From the IMG/VR virus record IMGVR_UViG_2537562194_000018, positions 1-6,042 of that record: a DNA stretch of 6,042 nucleotides, one strand, 5' to 3'. Made by a program: the position numbers. The stretch is from a virus (taxonomy: Duplodnaviria > Heunggongvirae > Uroviricota > Caudoviricetes). Shown here in pieces: positions 1-3,000 of the stretch. Each line of letters starts with the position of its first letter. Position 1 is the first letter of the stretch.

Positions 1-3000
1 GGCACCTTTGCCATCACGGCAGTGCAGCACGTACCGGAAAAAGAAGCCATCGTGGATAACGGGGCGCACTTTGACGGCGACCAGAGCGGCACGGTGAATG
101 GTGTCACGCCGCCAGCGGTGCAGCACCTGACTGCCGAAGTCACCGCAGACAGCGGGGAATATCAGGTGCTGGCGCGCTGGGACACGCCGAAGGTGGTGAA
201 GGGCGTGAGCTTCCTGCTTCGCTTGACCGTGGCAGCGGATGACGGCAGTGAGCGGCTGGTCAGCACGGCCAGGACGACAGAAACCACATACCGCTTCACG
301 CAACTGGCGCCGGGGAACTACAGGTTGACAGTCCGGGCGGTAAATGCGTGGGGACAGCAGGGCGATCCGGCATCGGTATCGTTCCGGATTGCCGCACCGG
401 CAGCGCCGTCTCGGATTGAGCTGACACCGGGCTATTTTCAGATAACCGCCACGCCGCATCTTGCGGTTTATGATCCGACGGTACAGTTTGAGTTCTGGTT
501 CTCGGAAAAGCGGATTGCTGATATCAGGCAGGTTGAAACCACAGCCCGCTATCTTGGCACGGCGCTGTACTGGATAGCTGCCAGTATCAATATCAAACCG
601 GGCCATGATTATTACTTTTATATCCGCAGTGTGAACACCGTTGGCAAATCGGCATTTGTAGAGGCTGTCGGTCAGCCGAGTGATGATGCATCAGGCTATC
701 TGGATTTTTTCAAAGGCGAGATAGGGAAAACCCATCTGGCTCAGGAGCTGTGGACGCAGATTGATAACGGTCAGCTTGCGCCTGACCTGACTGAAATCAG
801 GACGTCCATAACGGATGTCAGCAATGAAATAACACAGACCGTCAATAAGAAACTGGAAGACCAGAGTGCAGCGATCCAGCAGATACAGAAGGTTCAGGTT
901 GATACAAATAATAACCTGAACAGCATGTGGGCAGTGAAGCTGCAGCAGATGCAGGACGGACGCCTTTATATTGCGGGTATCGGTGCCGGTATTGAGAACA
1001 CCCCCGACGGCATGCAGAGTCAGGTGCTGCTGGCAGCAGACAGGATTGCGATGATTAATCCTGCGAATGGCAACACAAAGCCGATGTTTGTTGGTCAGGG
1101 CGATCAGATATTCATGAATGAAGTGTTCCTGAAATATCTGACGGCTCCCACCATTACCAGCGGCGGTAATCCTCCGGCATTTTCCCTGACACCAGACGGG
1201 CGACTGACGGCGAAAAATGCGGATATCAGTGGCAGTGTGAATGCGAACTCAGGAGCGCTCAACAATGTCACGATTAACCAGAACTGTACGATTAAGGGCA
1301 TGCTGGAGGCGACCCAGGTCAGAGGGGATTTCGTTAAAGCTGTATCAAAAGCCTTCCCGAAAAAAGTCGGTACGTGGGGTAACACGGAAACACCAAACGG
1401 TACGGTTACAGTCACCATCAGCGATGATCATAACTTTGACCGCCAGATTATTATTCCGCCCATTATTTTTAACGGTATAGCGTATGACGATCCGGGGAGC
1501 GGAAATAACCCAGGAGGCACGCGATACACGGGGTATGGTTTTGAAGTTCGCAAAAACGGCGTATTAATCGCATCCAGAGAAACTAAAGGGGCCATTCCCG
1601 GTAGTTACAGTGCAGTTATTGATATGCCTAGTGGTGGTGGTAGCGTCACTCTGGAGTTTAAGATTTTCCAGAAAGGCAATCAGGGGGCAGGCAATATCAC
1701 CGACTGTACGGTGATTGTGACCAAAAAAGCTGCTTCCGGCATCAGTATTCGTTGAAATATTTATAACCCCAATAAAGGGCGTCAGGAATGACGCCTTTTT
1801 TATTGCAGAAAAGCGAGAGGTAATTATGCGTAAACTTTATGCCGCCATTTTGTCCGCAGCCATTTGTCTGACCGTATCCGGTGCGCCTGCATGGGCGTCT
1901 GAGCAGCAGGCCACGCTGAGCGCGGGGTATCTTCATGTCTCGACGAACGTTCCTGGCAGCGATGAACTGAACGGAATTAACGTGAAATACCGTTATGAGT
2001 TTACGGACACACTGGGGATGGTGACGTCGTTCAGCTATGCAGGAGACAGGAATCGCCAGCTGACCCATTACAGCGATACCCGCTGGCATGAAGATTCCGT
2101 TCGTAACCGCTGGTTCAGCGTAATGGCGGGGCCGTCTGTGCGCGTGAATGAATGGTTCAGCGCGTATGCGATGGCGGGCGTGGCTTACAGCCGTGTGTCG
2201 ACTTTCTCCGGGGATTATCTCCGCGTAACTGACAACAAGGGGAAAACGCACGACGTGCTGACCGGAAGTGATGACGGTCGCCACAGCAACACGTCTCTGG
2301 CGTGGGGGGCTGGCGTGCAGTTTAACCCGACCGAATCCGTGGCCATTGATATTGCTTATGAAGGCTCCGGCAGTGGCGACTGGCGCACTGACGGTTTCAT
2401 CGTGGGTGTCGGTTATAAGTTCTGATTAGCCAGGTAACACAGTGTTATGACAGCCCGCCGGTTCAGGCGGGCTTTTTTGTGGGGTGAATATGGCAGTAAA
2501 GATTTCAGGTGTACTGAAAGACGGCACAGGAAAACCGGTAGAGAACTGCACCATTCAACTGAAAGCCAGACGGACCAGCAGCACGGTGGTGGTGAACACG
2601 GTGGCCTCTGAAAATCCGGATGAAGCCGGTCGTTACAGCATGGACGTTGAGTACGGTCAGTACAGAGTCATTCTGTTGGTGGAAGGATTCCCGCCGTCAC
2701 ATGCCGGGACCATCACCGTGTATGAAGATTCTCAACCCGGTACGCTGAATGATTTTCTCGGTGCCATGTCGGAGGATGACGTCCGGCCGGTAGGCACTGC
2801 GCCGTTTTGAACTGATGGTGGAAGAGGTGGCGCGTTACGCAGAGGAGGCGAAGAAGAATGCCGGAGAGGCGGAGACGTCAGCGAGGAATGCCGGCATATC
2901 AGCCAGTCAGGCAGAAGAGAGCGCGGCAAATGCTGACACTTCAGCAGGGGAGGCATCGGAGTCAGCCCGGCAGGCGGCAGAAAGTGCAGCCGCTGCAAAG

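Follow-up and report, generated by a model that had tools for sequence, protein, structure and literature searches.

Gene content and organization

The window, i.e. the whole stretch of DNA that was analysed, comprises 6,042 bp and carries the 3' part of the lambdoid tail tip gene J, lom, a tail fibre gene that is split between two reading frames, a small gene for a PF06820 protein ('prophage tail fibre C-terminus'), the type III effector gene nleC, and the left part of an IS1203 element (Table 1). The tail fibre gene is separated from lom by a strong intrinsic terminator (2452-2479; a GC-rich stem of 8 bp with a T-run behind it), and a simple promoter scan found no sigma-70-like site ahead of the tail fibre gene.

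The insertion of IS1203 has truncated nleC such that its stop codon (TGA, 5353-5355) is formed by the first three bases of the element; NleC is a zinc protease that cleaves NF-kB p65. An ORF of 63 codons (4284-4475) directly upstream of nleC is without Pfam match; upstream of this ORF, at about 4076-4152 in window numbering, the sole annotation in relatives is a short remnant of a 'tail assembly protein' with a frameshift.

Table 1. Features of the window, with positions in window numbering
Feature	Position	Strand	Remarks
J (lambdoid tail tip gene), 3' part	22-1755		ORF and Pfam
lom	1826-2425		ORF and Pfam
Tail fibre gene, 5' part	2490-2810 (ORF 2484/2490-2810)	+	frame 3; 106 codons and TGA 2808-2810
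GC-rich palindrome TCCGGCCGGA	2782-2792	.	10 bp in the intact gene, codons 98-101; interrupted by T2791
Extra T, CCGG[T]AGGC	2791	+	source of the frame break; in no related sequence examined
Tail fibre gene, 3' part	2794-3804	+	frame 1; opens directly after TAG 2791-2793; first ATG 2815
UUU UGA at the end of the 5' ORF	2805-2810	+	frames could be rejoined by a +1 slip here only
Small PF06820 gene	3806-4074	+	89 codons in relatives; frame-broken here
Six-substitution patch relative to the 95JB1 cognate locus	3860-3891	+	all six as in the ssrA-adjacent prophage paralogue
nleC (PF13678), type III effector gene	4504-5352		truncated at codon 283 by IS1203
IS1203, left part, inserted in nleC	5353-6042	+	runs to the contig end; two single-base deletions

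Frame interruption in the tail fibre gene

Frame 3 from ATG 2490 begins MAVKISGVLKDG, and the encoded polypeptide matches PF08400 (phage_tail_N) at positions 1-100 of the profile with 191.6 bits (E 7e-57; Pfam gathering cut-off, 26.6); these residues are followed by an out-of-frame VGTAP and by a Phe that is the same as the native residue. The frame-1 part covers positions 102-133 of PF08400; it further encodes a stretch rich in Ala, Ser and Glu, as well as collagen triple-helix repeats and the PF06820 C-terminus. The sequence of the window at the break site is CCGGTAGGCACTGCGCCG; the reading is CCGGTAGGC with the extra T and CCGGAGGC without it.

A preliminary description of this DNA had let the N-terminal part end at 2808-2810 in frame 3 and had placed its continuation in frame 1, from just past TAG 2791-2793, with one base too many in between. 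The ORF reading and the translation bear out both placements, and alignment with the closest genomes reduced the surplus to exactly one inserted T, at position 2791. When T2791 is deleted, a single gene of 437 codons results, the PF08400 match is unbroken (positions 1-133 of 134, 228.5 bits), and the repaired protein consists of the PF08400 N-terminus, the collagen repeats and the PF06820 C-terminus. The split is no product of chance, since both frames match adjoining PF08400 positions and are joined once T2791 is removed. In the deposited sequence, the break thus falls at codon 101, within the N-terminal PF08400 domain and in an otherwise conserved coding sequence.

The 3' part was considered also as a separate second gene, and this was rejected: there is no Shine-Dalgarno sequence ahead of ATG 2815, and no promoter-like site was found by the promoter scan in 2380-2900.

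Relation to the side tail fibre of phage lambda

The tail fibre gene occupies the position of lambda stf (orf-401 and orf-314, NC_001416), i.e. downstream of J and lom. In its N-terminal domain, the repaired protein is 75% identical to lambda orf-401 over 160 residues, with higher identity in the first 115, and the alignment passes straight across the break point. Past approximately residue 160 the two proteins are unrelated, the window protein continuing with collagen repeats and the PF06820 C-terminus; furthermore, lambda stf is followed by tfa, whereas the window fibre gene is followed by the small PF06820 gene. The gene therefore belongs to the PF08400 family by sequence and by its placement after J and lom, but it is not a full-length orthologue of lambda Stf, and its earlier designation as Stf-like holds for the N-terminal 115-160 residues or so and not for the remainder.

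The stf gene of lambda PaPa carries a single-base frameshift, which is a verified laboratory-strain mutation. This break is located about 400 codons into the gene, between orf-401 and orf-314, whereas the break in the window is at codon 101 and unverified; the parallel with lambda PaPa that had been drawn earlier serves as an analogy only, because of the distance of the lambda break from the start of the gene.

Source contig and closest genomes

The window is the whole of contig AEZV02000089.1 (GCA_000194355.2), part of a draft genome from 2011 of Escherichia coli O111:H- JB1-95. The AEZV project is a draft of the J. Craig Venter Institute, and JB1-95 is a clinical isolate (PMC3359367, Table 1). 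Both ends of the contig lie in multi-copy DNA, with the J gene at the start and IS1203 at the end, and the fibre gene itself is found at 9-11 places per genome. Draft assemblies typically break in multi-copy genes and insertion sequences.

In a set of 5,426 complete E. coli genomes, an unbroken match to the whole window, at 99.8% identity, was obtained from two only, those of 95NR1 (CP021339) and 95JB1 (CP021335). The match spans the junction of IS1203 with nleC, which is common only to these two genomes in that set; in other O111, O26, O103, O145 and O157 strains, the match stops at position 5352, and nleC appears from these alignments to be uninterrupted there. Strains 95JB1 and 95NR1, both isolates from the O111:H- outbreak in Adelaide in 1995, are about six SNPs apart genome-wide, and their genomes are PacBio assemblies whose indels have been corrected by means of Illumina reads (PMC6602927). 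Judged by name, serotype and the private IS junction, JB1-95 and 95JB1 are almost certainly the same outbreak strain and probably the same isolate; a literature search found no statement that JB1-95 equals 95JB1, nor one of the sequencing platform used for AEZV.

Base-by-base comparison with strains 95JB1 and 95NR1

At the same locus in 95JB1 and 95NR1, with the order J, lom, fibre gene, small PF06820 gene and IS1203-interrupted nleC shared with the window, the tail fibre gene is intact. It is an ORF of 1314 nt encoding a protein of 437 amino acids (WP_021824160.1, 'prophage tail fiber N-terminal domain-containing protein'), without the extra T that leads to two ORFs in the window. The frame interruption is hence not reproduced in independent sequence of the same lineage, with the strain identity of JB1-95 taken from the features given above. 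With one base less at this site, the Illumina-corrected genomes approximate the read evidence that the preliminary description had named as refuting the break. After removal of T2791, the window protein differs from WP_021824160.1 in two residues, Y116H and E391G. These replacements go back to isolated substitutions (2836, 2841 and 3662) that match neither the cognate locus nor the paralogue in the ssrA-adjacent prophage.

Over the 6,042 bp, the window differs from 95JB1 and 95NR1 by nine substitutions and four single-base indels, and each of the indels breaks a reading frame: the additional T at 2791, the shortening of an A7 run to A6 at 3817-3822, by which the small PF06820 gene is broken, and two deletions in IS1203, from A6 to A5 at 5725-5729 and from GG to G at 5771. 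All but the T are thus contractions of a run (A7, A6 and GG). The T at 2791 is flanked by G and A, i.e. it lies outside of any homopolymer and is not of the classic error type, which counts against an artefact.

Six of the substitutions are clustered in a short patch (Table 1). The best match of 95JB1 to window positions 3823-4110 is the ssrA-adjacent prophage copy (L008) and not the cognate locus, and in a three-way alignment the diagnostic positions on either side of 3860-3891 follow the cognate locus, while the six positions of the patch follow the paralogue. The patch fits the picture of a consensus made of reads from several near-identical prophages; real gene conversion between resident prophages could have produced it as well, and would look the same.

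Occurrence of the additional base in other genomes

The T variant was sought with a 54-base query centred on the T, in which each 28-base seed was forced to include the T. There were no matches in the 5,426 complete E. coli genomes and none in 50,697 phage records; the exact 37-mer pattern with the T was absent from IMG/VR, and an exact look-up of the 106-residue truncated protein among 153 billion gene positions returned a single contig, AEZV02000089.1. The corresponding 53-mer without the T, as positive control, was found at 7,001 places in 2,338 E. coli genomes and in 493 records at 100%. None of the paralogous copies examined for the T (L001, L002, L003, L005 and L008, and those of phages phi330 and EH0430) contains it; all read as the T-less sequence given above. 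Related prophages with the same two-ORF arrangement and a ribosome-binding site for the second ORF, which the preliminary description had envisaged, did not emerge: the arrangement made by the T is shared by no genome or phage record in these sets, and ATG 2815 is not preceded by a Shine-Dalgarno sequence. As the two-frame arrangement was found nowhere else, nothing indicates selection for it.

Two other records contain a broken copy of the fibre gene. In Escherichia phage vB_EcoS_phi330 (PV189401.1), the gene is 98% identical at the protein level and is also split, into ORFs of 107 and 329 amino acids, the second of which starts at the ATG equal to window position 2815. The cause is a CC to C deletion at window position 2783 (approximately 1793 in PV189401.1), so that the event is opposite in sign to the T insertion and lies 8 nt further upstream; this deletion, too, is a singleton that is absent from the 5,426 finished E. 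coli genomes. In Stx2a_EH0430, the frame is broken by deletion of a G at window position 3702.

The insertion in the window and the deletion in phi330 are independent events, separated by 8 nt, that fall within the palindrome TCCGGCCGGA or beside it. They could be taken to mean that the palindrome is a mutational hot spot by which side-fibre production is toggled in the manner of phase variation; the chance of such proximity is about 2-3%, as a rough estimate with three frameshifted records inspected. We consider this highly improbable, with both variants absent from the finished genomes and the intact sequence present 7,001 times. The site is, moreover, not a repeat tract of the kind that slips at high frequency, and a GC-rich palindrome is equally plausible as a trouble spot for sequencing. 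The proximity of the two breaks is a mild curiosity that would fit such a trouble spot as well as it would a weak hot spot of mutation.

Potential for +1 frameshifting

A real T might also be tolerated if the ribosome slipped by +1 at UUU UGA and so produced a full-length fibre, in the way known from prfB (CUU UGA); this would yield a protein of 437 residues, with VGTAP replacing EALRR. Such a slip is formally possible, as the +1 frame is open from position 2794 and overlaps the first ORF in 2794-2810, and a tRNA-Phe can shift its pairing from UUU 2805-2807 to UUU 2806-2808 with the stop codon positioned in the A site. The window hence has in common with prfB-type frameshifting a slippery codon, here UUU, with UGA next in frame, in a short overlap of frames. 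The programmed +1 site of prfB, CUU UGA, is accompanied by an upstream Shine-Dalgarno sequence, whereas at the window site the sequence three bases upstream is GCGCCG and not a Shine-Dalgarno-like stimulator, and the upstream bases, GCACTGCGCCG, are without a GGAGG-like element. The TTTTGA is furthermore only the native CGT TTT GAA read out of frame, the five residues that would be replaced lie within the conserved PF08400 domain, and the arrangement occurs in no other genome or phage record (0 against 7,001 in-frame copies). Recoding at this site is therefore regarded as exceedingly improbable. There is likewise very little probability for a combination in which the T is real, the palindrome is a recurrent frameshift site that switches the fibre off, and +1 slippage at 2805-2810 provides a low-level rescue.

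Origin of the frame interruption

The extra T at 2791 is in all likelihood a sequencing or assembly artefact in a draft contig that is bounded by repeats. Four frame-breaking indels in 6 kb are irreconcilable with a lineage whose members are about six SNPs apart, and three of these indels are under-calls of run length; the contig lies wholly in repeated DNA; the gene is intact in the polished, independent assemblies of this lineage; the T variant is unique as compared with 7,001 places without the T; the six substitutions of the patch equal a paralogue of the same strain, as would fit a consensus of mixed reads; and deletion of T2791 restores both a contiguous PF08400 match and a protein close to WP_021824160.1. 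Apart from the position of the T outside of a homopolymer and its absence from the paralogues examined, by which a mixed consensus does not account for the T itself, it counts against an artefact that AEZV02 is the second version of the assembly, in which such errors might have been expected to be removed.

As to the technical cause, we infer that the consensus in this repeat-bounded region was derived from few or from mixed reads, whereby a spurious T would have entered it at 2791, short runs would have been under-called by one base in three places, and a patch would have been taken from a paralogous prophage. The strain itself would then very probably carry an intact gene of 437 codons, identical or nearly identical to that for WP_021824160.1, for a protein with an N-terminal attachment domain of the lambda Stf type, a collagen-like shaft and a PF06820 C-terminus.

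A real mutation, private to the laboratory stock of JB1-95, is unlikely, though more probable than recoding. It would make the fibre gene a recent and neutral pseudogene, with a 106-residue N-terminal fragment as product and, by reinitiation at ATG 2815, at best a little of an unattached C-terminal fragment of 329 residues. The break is, after all, present in the deposited sequence, an insertion of this kind is not a homopolymer-length error, and the gene is broken in the records of vB_EcoS_phi330 and Stx2a_EH0430 as well. Side fibres are dispensable in lambdoid phages, and the prophages of EHEC are mostly defective; the loss of stf is reportedly tolerated in lambda PaPa. The variant is, however, a singleton against 7,001 copies, the same locus is intact in finished genomes of the same outbreak lineage, and it is not credible that four indels breaking reading frames, all within 6 kb, are true in a lineage with about six SNPs genome-wide. 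Of the alternatives offered in the preliminary description, an assembly error is thus favoured by the intact genes of 95JB1 and 95NR1, while a pseudogene resulting from decay of the prophage, or from selection against side fibres, found no support. If the break were real, a resident prophage would have undergone yet another neutral loss, that of a side fibre it does not need, as is well known from lambda PaPa.

In this strain, the collagen-like tail fibre gene of the nleC-carrying prophage is very probably still intact. A frame break in a short contig that is bounded by repeats, in an early draft assembly, should be compared with finished genomes or with reads before it is taken for a pseudogene or for recoding.

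Single-base variants in the small PF06820 gene and IS1203

The A6 variant of the small PF06820 gene is present in seven of the 5,426 complete E. coli genomes, a result that provided a second positive control for the search for the T variant. Among copies of IS1203 (approximately 19,890 places), none combines the two deletions seen in the window (5725-5729 and 5771). The A5 run by itself is found in few IS1203 copies, and the two that were examined (SS17 and S30) are annotated as frameshifted. The A-run deletion at 5725-5729 coincides with the end of orfA, just upstream of the annotated AL1L pseudoknot.
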